In this document: positions 13,574 through 35,159 of the stretch, piece after piece
Layout: the number at the start of each line of letters is the position of its first letter
How positions within the stretch are numbered: the stretch's first letter is position 1
Source: Actinomycetota bacterium
GTDB lineage: Bacteria; Actinomycetota; Acidimicrobiia; IMCC26256; VFJJ01
Direction of reading: 5' to 3'
Assembly (NCBI GenBank): GCA_009886115.1
Contig: VFJJ01000081.1
Span: forward strand, 1 to 50,578
DNA: 50,578 nt
Notes under the pieces: model-generated
Databases searched by the model: none
What the model was told of the DNA's origin: nothing
The model's input: the letters and a program-made list of their open reading frames with translations, nothing else
Translations under genes and position numbers: made by a program

Positions 13574-13587
13574 CAAACAACCGGTTG
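13574..13587. promoter_or_regulatory. Putative TetR operator (degenerate)
   Basis: CAAACAACCGGTTG in the divergent VOC/cyclase intergenic region. Confidence 0.5.
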
Positions 13588-13687: not shown

Positions 13688-14707
13688 ATGGGCCGCAACG
13701 TTCCCGGCGATTTCGCCACCCGCTGGACCCCGCCCGCCTACACCGTCGACGATGACGGCAAGGTCGTCGGCGGCTACACCCCGCCCGGATTGAACAACTG
13801 GGGACGCTGGGGCGCCAACGACCAGCGCGGCACCCAGAATCTCGTGGGCCCAGCGCAGATCGCGCGCGCCGCAGGGCTCGTTCGTGACGGCAAGGTGTTC
13901 TCGATGGCCCTCACGATCGACGCCGACGCCCCGCGCTTTCCCACCCGCCCCGCGCCGCAGCACTACTTCCTCTCGACCGGGGCCGACGCCGTCGCCGGAT
14001 CGCCCGTGCAGATCGCCATGCCGGGATACCAGTGGAACGACGACATGATCACCATGGCGCTCCAGGGCTCGACCCAGTGGGACGGCTTCGGGCACTTCAT
14101 GGCCCACGACACGATGTACAACGGTTACTGGGCTGGAAACGTCACCGCGGCGGGTGGGGCGGCCGTGCTCGGGATGGAGCACATGTACGAGAGCTTCATC
14201 GGGCGCGGTGTGCTGCTCGACCTGGCTCGGCTGCGCGGGGTCGAATGGCTCCCTGAGGCGTCCGAGGTGAACGCGGCGATGCTCGACGAGTGCCTGGCCG
14301 CCCAGGGCGTCGCCTTGGAGACGGGCGACATCGTCCTGCTGCGGACGGGCTTCCTCCAGAAGTGGGAGCGCTTGCAGACCTTCGACGAGCGGGTCGCCTA
14401 TTTCGGTGACACTCCCGGCCTCATCGAGGATTGCGTGGAATGGCTCTACCGAAACGACGTGTCGGCCCTGGCTGCTGACACGGTGGGCATCGAGGTCCTG
14501 GCCCCGACCACACCGCAGAGTCGGGTGCTGCCCATCCACCACGGCTGCCTCGTCGATCTCGGCCTTCCTCTCGGCGAGTTCTGGGACCTCGAGGCGCTCG
14601 CGGCCGACTGCGCCGACGACGGACGCTACGAGTTCATGCTGGTGGCGCCGCCGCTGCGCGTACCCCATGCGGTGGGCTCGCCCCTCAACCCCATTGCCAT
14701 GAAGTGA
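13688..14707 (+). CDS. Cyclase family (kynurenine formamidase-like) metal-dependent hydrolase
   Basis: NWGRWGANDQRG, QGSTQWDGFGH, GRGVLLD, GDIVLLRTG, GSPLNPIA. Confidence 0.92.
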   Translation: MGRNVPGDFATRWTPPAYTVDDDGKVVGGYTPPGLNNWGRWGANDQRGTQNLVGPAQIARAAGLVRDGKVFSMALTIDADAPRFPTRPAPQHYFLSTGADAVAGSPVQIAMPGYQWNDDMITMALQGSTQWDGFGHFMAHDTMYNGYWAGNVTAAGGAAVLGMEHMYESFIGRGVLLDLARLRGVEWLPEASEVNAAMLDECLAAQGVALETGDIVLLRTGFLQKWERLQTFDERVAYFGDTPGLIEDCVEWLYRNDVSALAADTVGIEVLAPTTPQSRVLPIHHGCLVDLGLPLGEFWDLEALAADCADDGRYEFMLVAPPLRVPHAVGSPLNPIAMK

Positions 14708-14720
14708 CGAGGGTCCCCAG

Positions 14721-16340
14721 GTGACGACACCGGCTCCGTGGACCTTGGGTCCTGACGAGCCGCGTGTGATCGGCGACTGGATCCGGCACAAGGCGCTGCG
14801 CAATCGAGAGAAGGTGGCGCTCGACATCGTTGGCCGCGAGAAGACCTATGTCGGTGTCGACCGCGACAGCGACCGGGTCGCCGCGGGCCTGTCCGCCCTC
14901 GGGCTGGGTCTGGGCGACAACGCGTCGCTGATGATGAAGAACAGCCTCGAGAACGTCGACGCCTGGTTCGCCATGGCCAAGGCCGGCATCGTGGAGGTTC
15001 CGATCAACCATGCCAATCGGGGATATCTCCTCGAGTACCTGATCGGACACTCGCACTCGAGGGCGATCGTGATCGACGAGGAGTACCTCGACCGCATCGC
15101 CGAGGTCGCTCCGAACCTCACCGGGCTCGAGCACGTCATCGTGCACCGCGAGGGTCTCGGCTTGGGAACCCCGTCGCTTCCCGGGCACGTCACCGTGCAC
15201 GAGCTGAACGACCTGTATCTCGACGTTCCGCCTCCTGCTCCGGCGCTCGACCGGCTGTCCCGGTCGGTCATTCTCTACACCTCGGGCACGACCGGGCCGT
15301 CGAAAGGGGTGTGCCTCTCACACGAGGCGAACCTCAACTTGACCCGTCACACGCGGTGGCTCGTGGGCTACGACGCCGACGACGTGCTCTACACGGCCTT
15401 CCCGCTGTTCCATGTGAACGCCAAGTACACCAGCGTGATGTGCGCCATGGAGGCCGACGCCAAGCTGGTGATGGACCAGAGGTTCTCGGCCAGCCACTTC
15501 TGGACGATGTGTCGCGACAAGGGCATCACCGCGTTCAACTACCAGGGCGGGCTGCTGATGATGCTCTGGAAGCAGCCCGAGCGCGACGACGACGCCGAGC
15601 ACTCGGTGCGGCACGGGTTCGGGGCTCCGTGCCCCGTCGAGATATGGGAGCCGTTCGAGGACCGGTTCGGCGTGGAACTGGTCGAGGTGTACGGGATGAC
15701 CGAGGTGGCCGTCGCCACCGAGAACCCCGTCCAATCTCGGCGCATCGGCTCCGCCGGACGCGAATCCGACAACTATCACGTCACGATCGTCGACGAGAAC
15801 GACCTGCCCGTTCCGCCGGGTACGGCCGGCGAGATCGTCGTGCGTCCGAAGAAGCCGGGCATCATGATCGGTGAATACTTCGACATGCCCGACGCCACCG
15901 TGCACGCCTTCAGGAACCTGTGGTTCCACACGGGTGATCGGGGGCGCTTCGACGACGACGGGTACCTGTACTTCATCGACCGGATGAAAGACTGCGTGCG
16001 ACGTCGGGGCGAGAACATCTCGTCGTTCGAGGTCGAGGCGGTCATCAACACGCACGATGCCGTGCTGGAGTCGGCCGTGTTCGGCGTCCCGTCGGAGCTC
16101 GGCGAGGAAGAGGTCATGACCGCGCTCGTTCGCAAGCCCGGGCATACGCTCGACGAGGTCGCCCTGCTCGACCATTGCACTGGGCACATGGCCCACTTCG
16201 CCGTGCCGAGGTACGTGAGGTGGATGGACGATTTGCCCAAGACCCCGTCGCAGCGGGTCGAGAAGTACAAGCTCCGGGCCGAGGGTGTCACCGTCGACAC
16301 CTGGGACCGCGATGCCAACGGGTACAAGGTGAAGCGATGA
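14721..16340 (+). CDS. AMP-dependent acyl-CoA ligase (CaiC-like)
   Basis: YTSGTTGPSKG, YGMTE, WFHTGD, RRRGENISSFEVE, PKTPSQRVEK. Confidence 0.95.
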   Translation: MTTPAPWTLGPDEPRVIGDWIRHKALRNREKVALDIVGREKTYVGVDRDSDRVAAGLSALGLGLGDNASLMMKNSLENVDAWFAMAKAGIVEVPINHANRGYLLEYLIGHSHSRAIVIDEEYLDRIAEVAPNLTGLEHVIVHREGLGLGTPSLPGHVTVHELNDLYLDVPPPAPALDRLSRSVILYTSGTTGPSKGVCLSHEANLNLTRHTRWLVGYDADDVLYTAFPLFHVNAKYTSVMCAMEADAKLVMDQRFSASHFWTMCRDKGITAFNYQGGLLMMLWKQPERDDDAEHSVRHGFGAPCPVEIWEPFEDRFGVELVEVYGMTEVAVATENPVQSRRIGSAGRESDNYHVTIVDENDLPVPPGTAGEIVVRPKKPGIMIGEYFDMPDATVHAFRNLWFHTGDRGRFDDDGYLYFIDRMKDCVRRRGENISSFEVEAVINTHDAVLESAVFGVPSELGEEEVMTALVRKPGHTLDEVALLDHCTGHMAHFAVPRYVRWMDDLPKTPSQRVEKYKLRAEGVTVDTWDRDANGYKVKR

Positions 16341-17563
16341 CCGGCATCGCCGAGCACGAGCGCAGGTCGGGAGCCAGGTCAGCGGCCGCACCAGCTGATG
16401 TGATCGTCCTCGAGGAGTCCGACCTGCAGGAGCGGTTCCACGCCGAGGGCTGGAGCGACGGCTTGCCCGTCGTGGCCCCGACGCCCGACCGGGTCGACGC
16501 CATGTTGGCCGCGGCTCGTCTCGACCCCGATCTGGTGGTGGGGATCGTTCCCCAGCGCGACCGGGTCGTCACCGCGGAGAAGGTCGCCGTCAACGCGGTC
16601 ATGGCCGGATGCCGGCCGGAGTACTTCCCATTGGTCGTCACGGCGATGGGGGCCATCCTCCAGCCCGCGTTCAACGCCCACACGGTGATCACGTCCACGG
16701 GTGGGGCAGCCCTGTGCCTCGTCGTCAGCGGTACCGAGGCCGACCGGCTCGGGATGAACGCCGCGCACAACGTGCTGGGCTCCGGCAACCGGGCCAATGC
16801 CACCATCGGTCGAGCCGTCAGGCTCGTCGCCCGGAACGTCCTCGGGGCGAGCTCCCCCGGGCTCGATGGATCGAGCTTCGGCCATCCCGGCAAGTACTCG
16901 TTGTGCATCGCCGAGGCGCCACCGCCGGCGGGTTGGGAGCCGCTTAGGGTCGAGCTCGGCTTCAGTGCCGACGACAGCACGGTCACGGTCGCGCCCACCG
17001 AAGGGCCGTGGCAGATTGCCAACCACCTGTCGCCTGCGGCACGCGACATCCTCCTCACCTTCGCCGCCGCGATCAGGTGCCCGGTCACGTTCTCGGTGGG
17101 CAAGGGCGGCCACGAGGTCGTGGTGCTGTTCGGGCCCGAGCATGCGCAGGCTGTTGCCGCCGAAGGCTGGACCCGTTCGGATGTGTGCGAGTTCCTCGTC
17201 GCGCACACGCGGGTCACGCCCGAGGAGTTGGCTGCGGCCGGCGTGCACCTGGAGGTGGGAGCCCAGCACGACATGACCCCAGACGCCGATGGGCGACTGG
17301 CGACCCTGGCGTCGCCGGCTTCGGTGTACGTCGTCACCTGTGGCGGCGCCGGGGCGGGGTGGTCGGCCTACCTGCCAACATGGGCGCCCAGCATCCACGC
17401 CCGGGCCGTGACGCTGCGGATCCCGAGACCGCACGAGCGCTGGCCGTGCACCGATGTCCACGGCCGTACGATCGACTGGTTGGTGTTCGCGCCGCCCTCA
17501 GCTCCCCAACCCCCGCGCCGCCTGCAGCACGTGCATGACCCAACGCGCGCCGCTTTCGCGTGA
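16337..17563 (+). CDS. Conserved hypothetical protein, partner of UGSC-type selenoproteins
   Basis: WSDGLPVVAPT, EKVAVNAVMAGC, GNRANATIGRA, GHPGKY motifs; ATGA overlap with the ligase. Confidence 0.8.
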   Translation: MTGIAEHERRSGARSAAAPADVIVLEESDLQERFHAEGWSDGLPVVAPTPDRVDAMLAAARLDPDLVVGIVPQRDRVVTAEKVAVNAVMAGCRPEYFPLVVTAMGAILQPAFNAHTVITSTGGAALCLVVSGTEADRLGMNAAHNVLGSGNRANATIGRAVRLVARNVLGASSPGLDGSSFGHPGKYSLCIAEAPPPAGWEPLRVELGFSADDSTVTVAPTEGPWQIANHLSPAARDILLTFAAAIRCPVTFSVGKGGHEVVVLFGPEHAQAVAAEGWTRSDVCEFLVAHTRVTPEELAAAGVHLEVGAQHDMTPDADGRLATLASPASVYVVTCGGAGAGWSAYLPTWAPSIHARAVTLRIPRPHERWPCTDVHGRTIDWLVFAPPSAPQPPRRLQHVHDPTRAAFA

Positions 17564-17595
17564 GGCGCCAGCACCGACAGATCGAGGAGCAGACC

Positions 17596-18183
17596 ATGGC
17601 CCAGATCACCGTTCACCGTCCCGACGTGGCCGACGACCGTCCGCAGGCGTCGTCGCTCGCCCGCCGGGTCTCGCTGCCAGCCGGAGCGGTCCTCACGCTC
17701 ATCGAGAACGGCAAGCCCAATGCTCGGGCGCTCATGGTGAAGGTGGCTGAAGGGCTGCGGTCTCGGCTGGGAATCGCGCGTGTAGACATCCATTCCAAGC
17801 CCAGCGCCGCCTCGGCCATCGGCCCTGACGAGGCCAAGGCGATCGCCGCGCGCTCTCATCTCGTCATCACCGGCGTCGGCGATTGAGGCGCCTGCACAGC
17901 GTGCAGTTTGCACGACGCCGTGATGATCGAGTCCCTCGGCACGCCAGCGACGCTGGTGATCACCGAGCCCTTTGCCCCCTTGGCTGCGAGCTTCTCGCGT
18001 ACCCTGGGCCTGGCGGAGGCGTACCACGTCGCTGCCGTCGCCCACCCTGTCTCCACGAAGGACGACGCCGAGCTCGGCGCCCTCGCGGCGACGATCGTCG
18101 ATCTCGTGGCGGCCCAGCTGACCATCGATCCGACCGATCCGACCGACCCGACCAACGACTCGACACGGGGAGCAGAGCAGTGA
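17596..18183 (+). CDS. UGSC-family-like selenoprotein (Sec at TGA 17884-17886, residue 97 of 195)
   Basis: ORFs 17560-17886 and 17908-18183 are in one frame and join across a single TGA, giving ITGVGD-U-GACTACSLHDAV. GAGGAG RBS before ATG 17596; SECIS-like hairpin follows the TGA. Confidence 0.85.
17887..17919 (+). promoter_or_regulatory. Candidate bacterial SECIS element
   Basis: GGCG...CGCC lower stem and CGTGCA-GTT-TGCACG upper stem-loop; loop G lies 20 nt after the UGA. Confidence 0.6.
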
Positions 18184-18740
18184 CCGACGACCTCGAAGCA
18201 CGGATCCGCCGGCTGGAGGACCGCGCCGAGATCAGCCTCCTCGTGGCCGAGTACGGCGTCGCCGTCGACGACCGCGACATGGCGACGCTGGGCGATCTCT
18301 TCACCGACGACGCGGTGTTCAGGCACGCCGACGGGTTCGCCGAGATGCGCGGCCGCGACACCGTCATCGACTTCTACCAGAACCGCTTTCGGCTGTTCGG
18401 GCCGAGCTTTCACTATCCGCACAGCCATGCGATCTGGTTTCCCGAGACGACCGGAGCCGGCGATGCGACGACCGCCACAGGACGGGTCACCGCCCATGCG
18501 GAGCTGGGGACCGAGGGAAAGACCGTCATGGTGGCCTTGCGCTACCACGATCGCTATGTGTGCCAAGGACGCTGGCGTTTCGCAGAGCGGGTGTTGTCGT
18601 TCCTGTACTTCATGGATCTGGCCGAGCTGGCCGCTGGCGGGCTGACGGCCCCGATGCGCAAGATCTGGCCTGGTCCGACGATGGCCACCGACCTGCCCGA
18701 GACGCTGCCGACCTGGCGCTCGTACTACGGGCTGGCGTGA
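18180..18740 (+). CDS. NTF2/SnoaL-like protein
   Basis: LEARIRRLEDRAEISLLVAEYGVAVDDRD ... RYHDRY ... WRFAER; GTGA overlap with the upstream gene. Confidence 0.9.
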   Translation: MTDDLEARIRRLEDRAEISLLVAEYGVAVDDRDMATLGDLFTDDAVFRHADGFAEMRGRDTVIDFYQNRFRLFGPSFHYPHSHAIWFPETTGAGDATTATGRVTAHAELGTEGKTVMVALRYHDRYVCQGRWRFAERVLSFLYFMDLAELAAGGLTAPMRKIWPGPTMATDLPETLPTWRSYYGLA

Positions 18741-18766
18741 GCAACGCCACCGACGAGGAGATCACG

Positions 18767-19474
18767 ATGAGCACCACCATCACTGAGCGGGTCGACGAGC
18801 TGCCTCCGGCCGAGCAGGCGATCGTCACCGAGATCGCGACGGCCTGCCGCATCTTGGCGGCCCACGGCTGCAGCCCCGGGATCGGTGGCCACGTGAGCGT
18901 GCGCGCTCCGGGGCAGGACGCCTTCTTCATCAACTCGTTCCACCTCACGTTCGACGAGATCACCCCGGCCGACGTGATGAAGCTCGGGTTCGACGGCAGC
19001 GCGCGTCACGGTCGCCACCGGGTGAGCCCGGGATGGGAGTTCCACGCCGGGATCTACCAGCAGCGCCGCGACGTCGACGCCGTCGTGCACACGCACGCCT
19101 TCTGGGTGACCGCGTTGTCGTCGCTCAACCGCCCGCTCAAGATGCGGCACAACCTGTGCACGTTCTTCTTCGAGAAGATGGCGGTGAGCCCCGACGACAC
19201 CTTCGAGCAGATCGGCCCGGCGCTGGCCGACGCCAACTCGATCCTCATCCCGTTCCACGGCGCGGTCACCGTCGACCGCTCGCTGGGCAGGGCCGCCGCG
19301 CTCATGCTGAACCTCGAGGACATGGCCCGCCTCGACGTGACCCTCGAGGCGACCCAGGCCCCACCCATGCCTGACGAACGCTGCCCCGCGCTCCGGACTC
19401 TCGTCGACGAGGTGGCCGGTTATCTGGAGCTGACCTGGGAGCTCCACCGCCGCAAGGTGATGCTCCCGTGGTGA
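18767..19474 (+). CDS. Class II aldolase/adducin family protein
   Basis: GHVSVR, HAGIYQQRRDVDAVVHTH, HG motif; GAGGAG RBS. Confidence 0.9.
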   Translation: MSTTITERVDELPPAEQAIVTEIATACRILAAHGCSPGIGGHVSVRAPGQDAFFINSFHLTFDEITPADVMKLGFDGSARHGRHRVSPGWEFHAGIYQQRRDVDAVVHTHAFWVTALSSLNRPLKMRHNLCTFFFEKMAVSPDDTFEQIGPALADANSILIPFHGAVTVDRSLGRAAALMLNLEDMARLDVTLEATQAPPMPDERCPALRTLVDEVAGYLELTWELHRRKVMLPW

Positions 19475-20727
19475 CCCGCGCCGGAGTGGGCCCGGGGCGC
19501 GAGGCCGAGCTGGCCGAGGCTCTCGTGGGTCTGGTCGACGGCGATCGCGACCCCTATCCGGTGTACGCCCTGCTCCGCGACGAGGCCCCGGTGCTGTGGT
19601 GCGACGCGCTCTCGGCCTGGGTGCTGACCCGTTGGGACGACGTCACCCGGGCCTTCGAGGACGCCGAGCACTTCGGGCAGCTCATGGGCACGCCCGGGAC
19701 GTCGTCGATCCACGGGCGGGCGCTCCTGCAGATGACGGGCGACGAGCACCGCCGCAAGTCGGCCATCGTCTCGCGCCGAATTCGCAGTCCCCGCCTGCTC
19801 GAGTCGGCGCTGGCCGAGATGGTCGCTCGCCTGATCGAGCACTTCGGCGGGGCGCTGCCGTTCGCCCCCGAGGTGGCTGACGTGAAGGGCGGGCTGACCA
19901 CGCCCGTTCCGCTGTCGGTCATCGGTGAGCTGATGGACATGCAAGAGGCCGCCCGTTTCGCCCACTGGTACCACGCCATCGTGGCCGCGGGAGTGGCGAA
20001 CGTGCGGGGAGACCCGGACGTCCACGCCCGCGGGCTCGAGGCGCGCCAGGAGCTGTACGACTTCGTCACGCCGATCATCGAGCAGAAGCGGCTCCACCCG
20101 GGTGACGAGTTACTGTCCGATCTCTGCTCGATGGAGTACGAGGGCGAACAGCTTTCCGACGACGAGGTCCGGAGCTTCTGCAGCTTTCTCCTTTCGGCTG
20201 GTATCGAGACGACCGACCGGGCACTCACCAGCCTGTTCAAGCAGCTGGCCCTGGAGCCGGCGTCGTGGCAGCGGGTGCGCGACGATCGATCACTCGTCTC
20301 GTCGGCCTGCGCCGAGATCCTCAGGTTCCGCGCACCGGTGCAGGGAACAGTGCGCGTCGTCGCTCGCGATCTCGAGCTCCGGGGCCGGAAGCTCCGCGCG
20401 GGTGACAAGGTCATCGTGTTGGTCGGAGCGGCGAACCACGATCCCGAGGCGTTCGCCGAGCCCGACTGCTTCGATGTCACCCGGTTCCTGGGCACCGAAC
20501 GGCCGCAGTTCACGCCGATCGGGCCTCTCCGCGCGTTCGGCGCTGGCGCCCACACCTGTACGGGGAGTCTCTTGGCCAAGCTGGAGATGGAGCGAACGCT
20601 CACGTACCTGCTCGACCGCTGCGAGCGCATCGAGCTCGTCGGCCCGGCACCAGCCGACGCCGGGTTCATGCTGCGATCGGCTCCGAGCCTCGAGCTGCGG
20701 CTCCACCCGAGCGCGGCGGTCCGCTGA
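19468..20727 (+). CDS. Cytochrome P450
   Basis: AGIETT I-helix, EILR, FGAGAHTCTG heme motif. Confidence 0.95.
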   Translation: MVTRAGVGPGREAELAEALVGLVDGDRDPYPVYALLRDEAPVLWCDALSAWVLTRWDDVTRAFEDAEHFGQLMGTPGTSSIHGRALLQMTGDEHRRKSAIVSRRIRSPRLLESALAEMVARLIEHFGGALPFAPEVADVKGGLTTPVPLSVIGELMDMQEAARFAHWYHAIVAAGVANVRGDPDVHARGLEARQELYDFVTPIIEQKRLHPGDELLSDLCSMEYEGEQLSDDEVRSFCSFLLSAGIETTDRALTSLFKQLALEPASWQRVRDDRSLVSSACAEILRFRAPVQGTVRVVARDLELRGRKLRAGDKVIVLVGAANHDPEAFAEPDCFDVTRFLGTERPQFTPIGPLRAFGAGAHTCTGSLLAKLEMERTLTYLLDRCERIELVGPAPADAGFMLRSAPSLELRLHPSAAVR

Positions 20728-20776
20728 AGACAGCGTTTCGACCTTCGACGAACGACATCACACCAGGAGGGGAGTC

Positions 20777-21613
20777 ATGAGCGGACGCTTGGCAGGAAAG
20801 GTCGCGGCGATCACAGGCGCGGCGAGCGGGTTCGGAGAGGGGGCCGTCAGGCGCTTCGTGGCCGAGGGAGCGAAGGTGGCCATGGGTGACCTGCAAGACG
20901 ACAGGGCCAAGGTGCTCTTCGACGACCTGGGCTCGGCCGTCGCCTACCTCCACTGCGATGTGACCAAGGAGGCCGACGTCGCGGCCCTCGTCGATCTGGC
21001 CGTGAGCCAGTTCGGCCGCCTCGATGTGATGTACAACAACGCCGGGATCGTCGGGGCAGTCGGGCCCATCGACACGACCCCCGCCGCCGAGTGGAGCGCC
21101 ACGCTGGCGGTCCTGCTCGATGGCGTGTTCCACGGCATGAAGCACGCAGCCCGGGTCATGAAGCCTCAGCAGTCCGGGTCGATCATCTCGATGGCGAGCA
21201 CGGCCGGCCTGTTCGGCGGGCTCGGGCCCCACGCCTACGCGTCGGCCAAGCATGCCGTGGTGGGCCTCACGAAGAACGTGGGGGCCGAGCTGTGCAGGTT
21301 CGGCATCCGGGTGAACTGCATCGCCCCGGCCAGCATGGCGACGGCCATGGTGGCCAACGTGATGACGGGCGACCCGACTGCGATCGAAGAGACCAAGCGG
21401 CTCCTGGCCGAGGCGTCGCCCATCCGCAACCGTCCCGGTCTGGTCGAGGACGTCGTGAACGCCGCCCTTTGGCTGGCGAGCGACGAGTCGGGTTACACGA
21501 ACGGGCATTGCCTCACGACCGATGCCGGTATCACCACCGGTTCGACGGCGGCCGACCCGGCCTTCGCCGAGTACGCCCCCATGATTCGCGAGGCCGGCAA
21601 GGTGGGTCTGTAG
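20777..21613 (+). CDS. SDR family oxidoreductase
   Basis: TGAASGFG, NNAG, YASAK; GGAGGGGAG RBS. Confidence 0.93.
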   Translation: MSGRLAGKVAAITGAASGFGEGAVRRFVAEGAKVAMGDLQDDRAKVLFDDLGSAVAYLHCDVTKEADVAALVDLAVSQFGRLDVMYNNAGIVGAVGPIDTTPAAEWSATLAVLLDGVFHGMKHAARVMKPQQSGSIISMASTAGLFGGLGPHAYASAKHAVVGLTKNVGAELCRFGIRVNCIAPASMATAMVANVMTGDPTAIEETKRLLAEASPIRNRPGLVEDVVNAALWLASDESGYTNGHCLTTDAGITTGSTAADPAFAEYAPMIREAGKVGL

Positions 21614-31982: not shown

Positions 31983-33086
31983 ATGGATATCGAGATCGGG
32001 GTTCCCGGGCAGATCATGCCGCCGGCCGATCGCGCCGTGAGCATGGCCCGGCGCAACGAAGCCGACGGCTTCGACGCCGTGTGGTGGCCATGCCATCTCA
32101 TGGGCTGGCACTCCGACTCGGTGTGGACCGAGGACCTCACACCGCTCGCAGCCGTTCAGCCCAATCCACACGTCTACTTCGACCCGCTCATCATGATGGG
32201 CGCGGTCGGCGCGGCGACCGAGCGCATCAAGCTGGGTGTGGTGGTCACCGACCTCATCCGCCGGCATCCGGCGATGGCGGCCAACATGATGCTGACGGTC
32301 GATCATCTGTCGCGGGGACGGGCGATCTTCGGTCTGGGCTCGGGCGAGGCCATGAACCTCACTCCCTACGGCCTCCCGTTCGACAAGCCCGTGGCCCGAC
32401 TGGCCGAAGGCATCGAGATCATCCGAAAGCTGTGGGCGGCTGACGGCCCCATCGACTTCGACGGTCAGTTCCACACGCTGCACCGGGCCGTTCTGGGACT
32501 GTCGCCCTACAACGGGGTGGCGCCTCCCATCTGGACAGCGGCGCACGGGCCGAGGATGCTCGAGCTCACCGGCCGCCTGGCCGACGGCTGGCTGCCCACC
32601 AAGCTCGACGTCGACGTGTACCGGTCGTCGCTCGAACGCATCCGGTCGTCAGCTCGTGATGCCGGGCGCGACGCCGATGCCATCACGCCGGGAATCCTGG
32701 CGTACGTGCTCCTGGCGCCGGATCAGGCGACCCTGGAGCGCATGCAGCAGCAACCGCTGCTCAGGGCGCTCATGGTGATGCTGCCGCCCGAGATCTACCG
32801 GAAGCTCGGTGTCGAGCCCCCCGTCGCCGGCTTTCATGGAATCATCCCCGCTGCGGTCGAGCGCGACGAGGCGCTCCGCATCATCGATGGGATCCCGCCC
32901 AAGGTGGTCGATTACTACACCTTTTGTGGAACTCCCGAGCAGATCGCCGAGGAGGTCGCCGAGTACCACAAGGCTGGGCTCCGACATCTGATCATGTGGA
33001 ACATCACGGCGTTCGGTGATCCCGCGCTGGCTGGCTGGTCGTTCAAGGCGATGAACCAGATCAAGGATCTCCTGCGGGCGATGTGA
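31983..33086 (+). CDS. LLM class F420-dependent oxidoreductase
   Basis: GVVVTDLIRRHP, GLGSGEAMN, IWTAAHGPRMLELTGRLADGWLP. Confidence 0.9.
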   Translation: MDIEIGVPGQIMPPADRAVSMARRNEADGFDAVWWPCHLMGWHSDSVWTEDLTPLAAVQPNPHVYFDPLIMMGAVGAATERIKLGVVVTDLIRRHPAMAANMMLTVDHLSRGRAIFGLGSGEAMNLTPYGLPFDKPVARLAEGIEIIRKLWAADGPIDFDGQFHTLHRAVLGLSPYNGVAPPIWTAAHGPRMLELTGRLADGWLPTKLDVDVYRSSLERIRSSARDAGRDADAITPGILAYVLLAPDQATLERMQQQPLLRALMVMLPPEIYRKLGVEPPVAGFHGIIPAAVERDEALRIIDGIPPKVVDYYTFCGTPEQIAEEVAEYHKAGLRHLIMWNITAFGDPALAGWSFKAMNQIKDLLRAM

Positions 33087-33114
33087 CGACGAGAGTCGAG
33101 ACGAGGAGCGACAC

Positions 33115-33510
33115 GTGACCAGCCCCGCCCGAACCGTGATCGAGAGCTACTTCCGGGCGCTCGAGACCGAGGATGAAGCCCTCCTGGCGACGGTGTTCCA
33201 TCCCGAGCTCGAGCTGGTGCCCGTGGGGTCGAGACCCCGCACGGGCTGCGACAGCGCTATCGCCTTCTTGCGCAAGGTGTTCGAGCGATTCCCCGATCAT
33301 CACGACACGCCGACACGAATCATCGAGGCCGGAGACGTCGTCGTGGTCGAGATCGCCTTTCGGGGTACCACGGCCGAGGGTCGATCGGTGACCTTCGATG
33401 CCCTCGACGTGTTCGACCTCCTCGACGGGCGCATCGTGAAGCTGGTGCAATGGTTCGACACGGCCGGTCTGGCCGCGCAGCTGGCGCGCCCCGTTGGAGG
33501 GTCATCATGA
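33115..33510 (+). CDS. NTF2/SnoaL-like protein
   Basis: VIESYFRALETED ... DVFDLLDGRIVKL..WFDT; GAGGAG RBS. Confidence 0.88.
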   Translation: MTSPARTVIESYFRALETEDEALLATVFHPELELVPVGSRPRTGCDSAIAFLRKVFERFPDHHDTPTRIIEAGDVVVVEIAFRGTTAEGRSVTFDALDVFDLLDGRIVKLVQWFDTAGLAAQLARPVGGSS

Positions 33511-35159
33511 GCGAGGGTCCCGAGGACTGGGTCGAGGTCACGACGTTCGGCGACCTCCTCGTACGGGGTGCAGCGTTGTACGGCGACGCCGATGCCCTGG
33601 TGTTCCCCGACCAGCGGCACACCTACCGGAGCCTGGTTGCAGCAGCCACCCGTGCCGGCCGGTCGCTCCTCGGCATTGGTGTGGGGCCCGGCGACGCCGT
33701 CGGGATCTTGATGCCGAACTGCGTCGACTTCGTGGAGGTCATGTTCGGCGCCACGATGATCGGCGCCGTCGTCGTTCCCATCAACGCCCGCTTCAAGGGG
33801 CGGGAGCTGGCACACGTCGCCGAGAACGCCGATCTCAAGGTGTTGGTGACGAGCGACATCGTCGACCAGCACACCGACTATGTGGAGATTCTCCACGGCT
33901 GCCTGCCCGGGCTGGCGTCGGCCACGGGGCCCGCCGTGACCGATCTGACGCTTGCCGTGGCGCCGTCGTTGCGGTGCGTCGTGCTCCTGGGCGACACCTC
34001 GCCCGCGGGCATGCTCGACCGGGCCGGCTTCGAGGCCCGAGCTGAGCTCGTCGACCCGGCCGATGTGCACCTCCGGCGCTCCCGGGTGGCGCTGCGCCAG
34101 ATCGCGATGATGCTCTACACCTCGGGCACCACAGCCATGCCCAAGGGTTGCCCGCTCACCCACGAAGCGCTGGTCCGCACGTCGGTCACGGCCTGCAGCT
34201 CGCGCTTCGAGCTCGTGTCGTCCGACCGCTTCTGGGATCCGTTGCCCTTGTTCCACATGAGTTCGATCCTGCCGATGATCGGCTGCTTCCACGCTGGTTC
34301 GGCCTACGTGACCCTCACCCATTTCGACCCCGCGGTGGCGATCGCCCAGCTGCGCGACGAGCGGTGCACGGTGTGCTTTTCGACCTTCCCGACGATCACC
34401 CAGGCGCTGCTCAACAACGCCGACTGGGACTCCGCCGAGTTCGCACGTATCCGTCTCATGAACAACGTCGCCCCGCCCGATGCGCTGCGGGCCATACACG
34501 CCAGGCTCCCGACCGCTCAGCACACCTCGGCCTACGGGCTCACCGAGTGCGGCGGGGTCGTGGCGTTCTCGAACCCCGACGACCCACCCGACAAGCGGGC
34601 CACGGCGTGCGGCACACCGTTCCGGGGCATCGAGGTGGAGATCCGCGACCTGGAGACGGCCAAGGTCGTGGGCCCCGACGCTCGCGGCGAGATCTGGGTG
34701 CGGGGCTACAACCTGTTCGAGGGCTACCACAACGATCTTGACAAGAACGCCGAGTCGTTCGATGCCGATGGCTGGTTCAACACCGGCGACATCGGGTCGC
34801 TCGACGCCGACGGTCGCGTCTCGTACCTCGGACGGTCGAAAGACATGCTCAAGGTCGGTGGGGAGAACGTGGCCGCGGTCGAGATCGAGTCGTGGTTGCA
34901 GACTCATCCCGCCGTGGCGATCGCGCAGGTCGTCGCCATCCCCGACGAGAAGTACGTCGAGGTTGCTGCCGCGTTCATCGAGTGCAAGCCCGGATCGACC
35001 GTCACCGAAGCGGAGCTCGTGGCGTACTGCCAGGGCGAGATGGCCAGCTTCAAGATCCCCCGCCACGTCCGTGTGGTCACGGAGTGGCCCATGTCGGCGA
35101 CCAAGATCCAGAAGTTCCGACTCCGTGACGCGCTGGTCCAGGAGCTCGGCCTCAGCTGA
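33507..35159 (+). CDS. AMP-dependent acyl-CoA ligase
   Basis: YTSGTTAMPKG, YGLTE, GWFNTGD, KVGGENV, KIQK. Confidence 0.95.
   Translation: MSEGPEDWVEVTTFGDLLVRGAALYGDADALVFPDQRHTYRSLVAAATRAGRSLLGIGVGPGDAVGILMPNCVDFVEVMFGATMIGAVVVPINARFKGRELAHVAENADLKVLVTSDIVDQHTDYVEILHGCLPGLASATGPAVTDLTLAVAPSLRCVVLLGDTSPAGMLDRAGFEARAELVDPADVHLRRSRVALRQIAMMLYTSGTTAMPKGCPLTHEALVRTSVTACSSRFELVSSDRFWDPLPLFHMSSILPMIGCFHAGSAYVTLTHFDPAVAIAQLRDERCTVCFSTFPTITQALLNNADWDSAEFARIRLMNNVAPPDALRAIHARLPTAQHTSAYGLTECGGVVAFSNPDDPPDKRATACGTPFRGIEVEIRDLETAKVVGPDARGEIWVRGYNLFEGYHNDLDKNAESFDADGWFNTGDIGSLDADGRVSYLGRSKDMLKVGGENVAAVEIESWLQTHPAVAIAQVVAIPDEKYVEVAAAFIECKPGSTVTEAELVAYCQGEMASFKIPRHVRVVTEWPMSATKIQKFRLRDALVQELGLS

Follow-up and report, generated by a model that had tools for sequence, protein, structure and literature searches.

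A UGSC-family selenoprotein and its 'Unknown_1' neighbour in a catabolic gene run of an Actinomycetota bacterium: a coupled pair with a proposed redox role

What does a selenoprotein do in the middle of a bacterial catabolic operon, and does it work together with the protein encoded next to it? This question is raised by a 50,578-nucleotide (nt) stretch of Actinomycetota DNA (GenBank VFJJ01000081.1; hereafter the window), which is contig C154 of a 5.4-Mb draft genome (G+C about 68%). A preliminary description, made from the DNA letters of the window, pointed to a selenoprotein gene and its upstream neighbour within a run of coenzyme A (CoA)-dependent catabolic genes and proposed that the two products form a two-component redox enzyme. 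The elements on which the answer depends are the following.

16337-17563, + strand: partner protein, 408 amino acids (aa), assigned to the 'Unknown_1' family by its signature motif (the 'DGLPVVAPT' protein)
17596-18183, + strand: UGSC-family selenoprotein, 195 aa, motif GVGD-U-GAC (PF24696, E 2.5e-39)
17884-17886, + strand: in-frame TGA codon, read as selenocysteine (Sec) U97 on the basis of a U/C alignment column and of the Sec machinery
17900-17914, + strand: hairpin resembling a selenocysteine insertion sequence (SECIS) within the coding sequence, CGTGCA / GTT loop / TGCACG, supported by covariation

The selenoprotein, its partner and their coupling

The selenoprotein matches PF24696 at 135.6 bits against a gathering cut-off of 25, its residues 6-176 covering model positions 2-171/172. 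All 72 aligned family members have U or C in the column of U97, and Cys100, three residues further on, is at least 90% conserved. It shares further traits with the family: a single domain extends across the TGA, the Sec-containing U-x-x-C motif follows a beta-strand (GVGD-U-G-x-C), homologs of Cys type are known, and aquatic and sediment bacteria commonly host the protein. In contrast to the U-G-S-C of the family, the window motif (residues 96-100, D-U-G-A-C) has Ala in place of Ser, and the NF041046 equivalog score, 109.6 bits, is under the cut-off of 125. Judged by sequence, the protein appears to be a slightly divergent family member of a U-G-A-C subgroup. The available part of the original report counts UGSC among the major selenoprotein families of the Global Ocean Sampling (GOS) metagenomes, with a U-x-x-C motif, 255 Sec against 21 Cys forms and a fold judged 'likely' thioredoxin-like (Zhang and Gladyshev 2008, PMC2398784). 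A 2022 review and a 2026 review assign it no function in their available portions, and no functional characterisation of the family (PF24696, NF041046) was found in the literature as far as its text was available. The family had been presented at the outset as an uncharacterised one; it already bears the name UGSC, and the partner corresponds to the 'Unknown_1' domain published in 2008.

The latter assignment comes from a shared signature. The GOS paper reported UGSC fused to a conserved domain, 'Unknown_1', and its Fig. S1A shows AVNGVMAGCRPEYMP and variants (PMC2398784). The window partner reads AVNAVMAGCRPEYFP, that is, the signature AVNxVMAGCxPEY with the conserved Cys as in that figure, and by this motif it is therefore Unknown_1. 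Here it is encoded by a separate gene and not as a fusion, and the paper gave only the fusion and few homologs. Further motifs of the partner are DGLPVVAPT, AVNAVMAGCRPEY with Cys92, and a second conserved cysteine, Cys190 (GKYSLCIAE). In family alignments D41, R159 and E193 are invariant, Cys92 is at least 90% conserved and Cys190 commonly so; conservation of Cys92 is not to be judged from the 80 multi-phylum loci described below, since the retrieval pattern contained AVMAGC. Named relatives did not emerge from database searches. Pfam at E<=10 returned only a chance match to MbtH, NCBIfam returned no match, the PDB gave none by sequence and none with a profile of the fusions (best E 0.38), and a protein atlas yielded only unnamed or auto-named clusters. 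The family is large, with 4756 clusters at 50% identity at E<=1e-3 and 959 at E<=1e-30, and 7717 of 8000 scored candidates match the partner in a 90%-identity collection. Among 120 listed relatives, every source-given name is 'hypothetical protein' and no Pfam domain is precomputed. Tandem-double partners of about 710-780 aa also occur (G281:C272, P0130, P0133, P0154, P0167, P0220); no UGSC domain was found in these by Pfam scan, and genome G281 has no UGSC match.

Conserved adjacency of the two genes had been set beforehand as the test of the pair, and it was found within the genome, within the phylum and beyond. In the window's own genome each of the eight UGSC genes has a partner homolog as its direct same-strand neighbour, with the partner first in five pairs and UGSC first in three. 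Across 401 genomes of the phylum, with four partner candidates scored per genome, 28 have a UGSC match over the cut-off and all 28 also have a partner; 29 carry a partner, the exception being G281 with tandem-double partners only. Outside the own genome 36 of 39 UGSC matches in the phylum adjoin a partner match, and of the other three, one lies where a contig starts and two are partial matches on short contigs. A multi-phylum scan with one genome per species gave at least 614 partner loci, of which the best 80 were kept; these are the closest relatives of the query, retrieved by two motif patterns, and not a random sample. They span Actinomycetota, Chloroflexota, Proteobacteria, Methylomirabilota, Poribacteria, Binatia, Acidobacteriota, Myxococcota, a Bacillota isolate and a haloarchaeon. 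A UGSC domain is found on the same strand at 67 of the 80, within 200 nt at 61 of these, and the order is partner-first at 50 and UGSC-first at 17 (at L074, a weak match counted within the 67, Pfam confirmed the C-terminal half of UGSC). Thirteen loci are without a UGSC match: at three of them a contig end cuts the locus, and at L042 a Redoxin domain is fused ahead of the partner. Re-examination covered eleven loci, ten of these thirteen and L074, and apart from L042 and L074 it found nothing informative.

Natural fusions point in the same direction. A census of 57 partner-family representatives of at least 400 aa contained 13 stop-free proteins running from UGSC into the partner (12 with the whole UGSC domain, one without its first 28 positions). 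Another 24 start just past the TGA, within the C-terminal half of UGSC, and continue into the partner; because gene calls restart after a TGA, these represent Sec-type fusions. In four more the partner comes first and UGSC positions 2-92 follow, up to the TGA, so that fusions occur in both orders. Two genomes of the phylum carry fusions of 580 aa, and one of the own-genome copies (C193:148648-150360; L014:9649-11361) is a UGSC-partner fusion with one frame over both domains. Adjacency and fusion thus show that the two families are coupled near-obligately. A model of the natural Cys-type fusion P0245 (549 aa, 34-sequence alignment) has a mean pLDDT of 91.2 and a predicted TM score (pTM) of 0.90, and forms one compact body in which only a linker of 8 residues is of low confidence. 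A pTM of 0.90 should be unreachable for two independently floating domains of 190 and 350 residues; this single score, obtained without controls, would therefore imply a confident interface, with the UGSC and partner domains confidently placed against each other. The window selenoprotein and its partner probably form a physical complex.

Two further observations concern the distribution of the pairs. The seven other own-genome pairs (L011-L017), with one in-frame TGA each, lie at C1:6597-8214, C179:2778-4449, C44:44046-45639, C193:148648-150360, C149:1852-3421, C101:8698-10325 and C101:27596-29151; eight Sec-type copies in a 5.4-Mb genome make an unusually large paralog set for a selenoprotein. 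Motif subfamilies, in turn, track gene order: U-G-S-C-T-[SA]-W is mostly UGSC-first (12/17), and U-G-S-C-S-S-C-S goes with partner-first (L018-L097).

A proposed redox role for the pair

The two-component redox enzyme proposed at the outset can now be divided into its parts. That the genes form a conserved two-gene unit is borne out by adjacency and fusion, while the redox role is a plausible reading put forward here as a proposal. We slightly favour the view that 16337-17563 and 17596-18183 encode two subunits of one redox enzyme, and we infer its relay and electron source along the following lines. The large subunit ('Unknown_1') would probably bind the substrate and would contribute the near-invariant Cys92 in AVMAGC. 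The small subunit, the UGSC selenoprotein, would adopt a flavodoxin-like alpha/beta fold with U97-x-x-C100 at the start of a helix. Its selenol might attack an oxidised Cys of the large subunit or, alternatively, a substrate adduct that this subunit holds; Cys100 would then resolve the intermediate to a selenenylsulfide, and a system of the thioredoxin reductase (TrxR) type would re-reduce it. The net outcome would be a two-electron reductive or thiol-dependent step.

Several fusions are consistent with such a scheme. The partner is fused to Pyr_redox_2/TrxR-like flavoprotein domains in P0238, P0286 and P0287, a FeThRed_B domain (ferredoxin:thioredoxin reductase (FTR) beta-like) stands behind a UGSC-partner fusion in P0184, and in P0259 and L042 a Redoxin domain fused to the partner takes the place where UGSC would stand. 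In addition, about nine in ten of the UGSC domains beside a partner use Sec over Cys (61/67). Together, the U-x-x-C motif, the conserved partner Cys and these rare fusions to redox modules suggest a selenol/thiol redox role for the pair. The fusions and the conserved residues also suggest a division of labour in which the partner would be the client or catalytic subunit and UGSC its dedicated reductant, fed by a reductase.

The fold assumed for the small subunit is taken from the P0245 model. In it, five beta-alpha units make up the UGSC domain, and the redox motif falls between strand 3 and helix 3. Foldseek matches the domain to lumazine synthase, azoreductase/NQO and flavodiiron flavodoxin domains (prob about 1.0, TMt 0.4-0.57). 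A thioredoxin fold is absent among the 41 Foldseek matches listed for this homolog of the window protein. From the model of a homologous natural fusion, UGSC therefore looks flavodoxin-like and is a poor fit to the thioredoxin-like fold guessed in 2008; if the prediction holds, the earlier guess would need correcting.

A number of observations weigh against the redox proposal. The 2026 review, in its available text, still has the UGSC family as uncharacterised. Of the 13 stop-free fusions, four have neither UGSC redox residue and a fifth has no resolving Cys, yet all five keep the partner Cys. Conversely, Ala replaces Cys92 while Sec is kept in the C193 copy (AVMAGAS), in L051 and in P0173, so a strict Cys92-Sec relay cannot hold for every member. 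Such losses on either side imply that UGSC also has a structural role and that Sec itself may be catalytic in some members. Furthermore, Pfam scans of the window revealed no TrxR-like gene in this operon, the TrxR, FTR and Redoxin fusions are few and some of them could be gene-calling read-throughs, and no convincing structural relative of the partner was found with Foldseek, VIA or hhalign. Finally, the 82 nearest same-strand neighbours at 62 loci are heterogeneous, with no recurrent family among them.

Comparison with known enzymes helps to place the proposal. Glycine, sarcosine and betaine reductases and D-proline reductase (GrdB/PrdB) employ Sec in a U-x-x-C-type motif that acts on a substrate held by another subunit, and their selenenylsulfide is re-reduced by thioredoxin and thioredoxin reductase. 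The pair may work in a similar manner, with a Sec subunit acting on the substrate of a partner subunit. However, the selenoprotein has no match to PF07355 (GRDB) at E<=1e-3, PF24696 alone being reported, no pyruvoyl-type partner is recognised, and the organisms carrying UGSC, with their P450s and other oxygenases, appear to be aerobic heterotrophs and not amino-acid fermenters. A second parallel may be drawn with methionine sulfoxide reductase, ArsC and phosphoadenosine phosphosulfate reductase, which operate with thioredoxin or glutaredoxin: a catalytic-Cys enzyme is served by a small dithiol-type redox protein and is occasionally fused to redoxin or reductase modules. Unlike these systems, UGSC is predicted to be flavodoxin-like and uses Sec, and the partner has no detectable relation to them.

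In a more far-reaching form of the proposal, which we regard as tentative and rather doubtful, the pair would represent a new class of two-subunit selenoenzyme. A flavodoxin-fold selenoredoxin would dock on a catalytic subunit of undescribed fold and carry out a thiol/selenol-dependent step, reductive or bond-cleaving, on intermediates that are carboxylates or acyl-CoAs, serving as a duplicated plug-in module for the breakdown of diverse hard-to-degrade compounds. If true, a function would be found for UGSC, which ranks among the most abundant of the orphan selenoprotein families in aquatic bacteria.

In an alternative scenario, the partner might be a non-redox enzyme (isomerase, racemase, lyase or hydrolase) with Cys92, and possibly Cys190, as nucleophile or acid/base, while UGSC keeps these cysteines reduced or has a structural or regulatory part, with no net reduction of the substrate. 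We consider this unlikely, although it is the competitor that survives best. The five stop-free fusions depleted of one or both UGSC redox residues retain the domain and the partner Cys, as would be expected here, and 8 of the 13 partner loci without a UGSC match have room for the gene yet none was found. The pair also turns up as an add-on to widely differing catabolic operons, a pattern often seen with isomerases and epimerases, and an MmgE/PrpD-family epimerase (Z 5.0) is among the weak fold matches of the partner. On the other hand, Sec in 61 of 67 UGSC domains beside a partner would be costly for mere upkeep, the TrxR-like and FTR-like fusions suggest a steady flow of electrons, and neither Foldseek nor VIA gave a convincing match to a known isomerase fold. 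A redox enzyme of two subunits remains our preferred reading.

The gene run and its bearing on the substrate

To what the preferred redox enzyme might be applied is a matter for the surrounding genes. A codon-position gene call, read with Pfam and NCBIfam scans, gives eight tightly packed + strand genes at 13688-21613. Apart from the pair, the run and its upstream flank contain the following.

13578-13587, no strand assigned: perfect 10-bp palindrome CAACCGGTTG, putative operator-like site, single occurrence in the window
13688-14707, + strand: cyclase-family protein (metal-dependent hydrolase-like), first gene of the run (PF04199, E 5e-22)
14721-16340, + strand: ATP-dependent acyl-CoA ligase (AMP-binding, E 1e-60, and AMP-binding_C; best NCBIfam NF004808 at 527 bits, under the cut-off of 722)
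18180-18740, + strand: SnoaL_4-fold protein (PF13577, E 1e-25)
18737-19474, + strand: class II aldolase/adducin-family protein (PF00596, E 2.8e-36)
19468-20727, + strand: cytochrome P450 (PF00067, E 1.2e-31; TIGR04538 at 213 bits, under the cut-off)
20777-21613, + strand: short-chain dehydrogenase/reductase (SDR), final gene of the run (adh_short_C2, E 1.3e-54)

Every gene of the run described at the outset is present at its coordinates, and the junctions are as tight as had been claimed. The cyclase and ligase genes are separated by 13 nt, the ligase stop overlaps the partner start (ATGA), the UGSC stop overlaps the SnoaL start and SnoaL overlaps the aldolase (GTGA in both cases), and the aldolase and P450 genes overlap by 4 or 7 nt. 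The two wider gaps, of 32 nt between partner and UGSC and of 49 nt between P450 and SDR, both hold good Shine-Dalgarno sequences (GAGGAG 6 nt 5' of the UGSC ATG; AGGAGG). Terminator-like sites within the run are at chance level (2 found, 2.5 expected), and a DNA signal search of the region found no sigma-70-like promoter. Separate transcription of the partner and UGSC genes finds no support, the 32-nt gap between them having no terminator. The operator-like site of the preliminary description was located as the palindrome listed above, about 100 nt upstream of the cyclase-family gene, its role as an operator being putative; the divergent gene upstream of the run encodes a glyoxalase/vicinal oxygen chelate-fold protein, not a regulator.

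Elsewhere the neighbours of the pair vary. Own-genome pairs lie next to acyl-CoA ligases (window and C193), luciferase-like monooxygenases (three loci), amidohydrolases (two loci), and dehydrogenases with flavoproteins (one). At the 62 loci the neighbours include hydrolases, transporters, SDRs, CoA transferases, an amidase, a Mo-hydroxylase and many unmatched open reading frames (ORFs), and tblastn with the cyclase, SnoaL and aldolase proteins of the window gave no match at any of the 80 loci. Ligase orthologs (47-53% identity) were found about 0.3-2.7 kb from the two closest orthologous pairs, L098 (genome G216) and L021, on the opposite strand, and a homolog at 35% identity near pair L020. 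Additionally, the start of the C193 fusion overlaps the stop of a different acyl-CoA ligase, and an acyl-CoA thioesterase follows the fusion. By sequence comparison, an acyl-CoA ligase is thus the only recurring neighbour, limited to close orthologs and one paralog. Given that the pair is translationally coupled to the ligase here, its likely substrate would be the carboxylate or acyl-CoA handled by 14721-16340. The heterogeneity of the other neighbours means that this link rests on few loci, and the operon context points to a substrate only weakly. As the functional handle that it was expected to provide, it is weak: neighbours vary over the 62 loci and the eight own-genome copies, and the ligase alone recurs.

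The variation could also be taken to mean that the pair is a real two-subunit selenoenzyme unrelated to the operon, a self-contained module for, e.g., peroxide or electrophile detoxification that has landed in many contexts. No third gene is conserved among the 82 immediate neighbours, the eight own-genome contexts all differ, and homologs of the cyclase, SnoaL and aldolase genes were found at none of the 80 other loci. Such independence is nevertheless improbable in view of the start/stop overlaps with the ligase upstream and with SnoaL downstream, the recurrence of the ligase association in the ortholog subgroup and in one paralog, and the fact that the neighbours are nearly always catabolic enzymes.

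Two kinds of neighbour may be mentioned in their own right. Just downstream of the UGSC pair of C179 (L011:4822-6299), on the opposite strand, FdhD and a MobA-like molybdenum-cofactor gene hint at a formate-dehydrogenase-type selenoenzyme nearby. A homocysteine S-methyltransferase-family gene lies directly upstream of the pair at L077:4546-5913 and L074:4885-5880, and recurs within Candidatus Poriferisodalis only, in two sponge-symbiont genomes.

Partner fold, selenocysteine decoding and environmental copies

The structure of the partner raises one further alternative to a thiol/selenol relay. An AlphaFold2 model (68-sequence alignment) has a pLDDT of 88.9 and a pTM of 0.90, and its top Foldseek matches are class I (Fe-S) fumarate hydratases (E 4e-5, prob 0.84-0.93) at a TM score of about 0.2 and a root-mean-square deviation (rmsd) of 16 A. 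Matches to Toblerone-fold hydrolases are weak (E>=5e-3, TM 0.19). A VIA search of 48,161 chains returned no match at Z>=6; its best rows have Z 5.7 over 73 residues and Z 5.6 over 175 residues, the latter to the fumarase of M. jannaschii, and CyuA scores Z 3.8. The partner profile compared by hhalign with 24 Fumerase domains of the same phylum gave a probability of 0.13%. Sec97, Cys100, Cys92 and Cys190 might, on this resemblance, bind a metal or Fe-S centre at the interface, and the enzyme would be hydro-lyase-like and distantly similar to class I fumarate hydratase or cysteine desulfidase. The two conserved partner Cys and U-x-x-C would supply four possible ligands, and fumarate hydratases come first in Foldseek for two independent models, the partner and again the fusion (E 4e-5 to 4e-4, prob 0.8-0.93). 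Yet the superposition is poor, the profile comparison with Fumerase (PF05681) is negative, the partner has no Pfam match and a three-Cys cluster motif is not established. In addition, some members do without Cys92 and some without the UGSC cysteines, and Redoxin in place of UGSC and the TrxR fusions fit disulfide exchange better. The fumarase resemblance of the model is thus unconfirmed, and a metal site is very improbable.

Both the redox enzyme that we prefer and its competitors presuppose that the TGA at 17884-17886 is translated. The genome encodes selB and selA on contig C73 and selD on C57, all three proteins scoring over their cut-offs, and a tRNA-Sec with anticodon TCA on C73. All eight own-genome UGSC copies have exactly one in-frame TGA, in the same column; among the 67 UGSC domains beside a partner at other loci, 61 carry TGA at that column and 5 carry Cys. 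Cys-type homologs number 13 in one homolog set, besides the 5 of 67 at the multi-phylum partner loci. Moreover, the TGA region is kept in a contig from an RNA library and in DNA contigs of other studies.

The hairpin was examined in 51 nt around the TGA aligned for 69 Sec-type UGSC genes (8 from the own genome and 61 from other genomes). In the window copy a 6-bp stem with a GUU loop begins 14 nt 3' of the TGA. Pairing is present in 88.8% of cells across the alignment and drops to 16-55% in slid-arm controls; changes on both sides of the stem were counted in 38 cells against 8.2+-2.3 in shuffles, and none of 500 shuffles reached the observed covariation. Helix pair 27-33, for example, is C-G in 52 sequences and G-C in 15, and a compensating pair links a Cys/Trp codon change (TGC/TGG) to a synonymous Val change (GTG/GTC). 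The single-sequence minimum free energy fold 3' of the TGA is not distinctive (z -1.0). Because a single domain spans the TGA (residues 6-176), the Sec machinery is encoded, the hairpin covaries and Cys-type homologs exist, the reading of this TGA as a Sec codon is well supported. That it is instead an ordinary stop, leaving a pseudogene or two small unrelated ORFs, is hardly credible: translation table 11 does split the frame into ORFs of 108 and 91 aa, but the domain runs across the codon, the same column is shared by 8/8 own-genome and 61/67 other copies, the hairpin covaries, the genome encodes the machinery, and RNA-library and separate DNA contigs keep the region. As a side observation, the Cys/Trp codon difference between the motif subfamilies falls in one SECIS stem arm, and the opposite arm compensates for it.

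Copies of the run itself were recovered from the environment. A 10-kb contig of a different study, from a near-identical strain in another metagenome, holds the whole operon at about 99.4% identity. The selenoprotein C-terminus is a DPTDPTDPT repeat tail (window 18100-18160), and this contig carries an in-frame 18-nt expansion of it. Drinking-water metagenome contigs at about 93-95% identity retain the gene order across the ligase-partner and partner-UGSC junctions. In one metatranscriptome library, assembled pieces at 99% identity or more cover parts of 7 of the 8 genes, with no piece listed for the ligase. The SnoaL-aldolase and aldolase-P450 junctions are bridged by such pieces, the partner-UGSC junction by none, and one piece spans the TGA. 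These environmental matches are assembled contigs and show presence, not transcription units.

The UGSC family and its 'Unknown_1' fusion are already in the literature. New here are the near-obligate, order-independent adjacency, the eight Sec-type pairs in one genome, the covarying SECIS hairpin, the size of the partner family, the predicted flavodoxin-like fold of UGSC, the census of redox-module fusions and the recurrent ligase link of the ortholog group. With a near-constant partner, the orphan selenoprotein becomes part of a defined target of two proteins for expression, structural work and assays. The window copy is one of few with a suggestive, translationally coupled neighbour, the acyl-CoA ligase, and offers a concrete start for finding the substrate.

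The remainder of the window is a large catabolic island with CoA transferases, an acyl-CoA dehydrogenase, a thiolase, an enoyl-CoA hydratase, a luciferase-like monooxygenase and a second ligase. Within it, genes for a luciferase-like monooxygenase, a SnoaL protein and an acyl-CoA ligase form a second trio at 31983-35159, between two pairs of CoA-transferase subunits.

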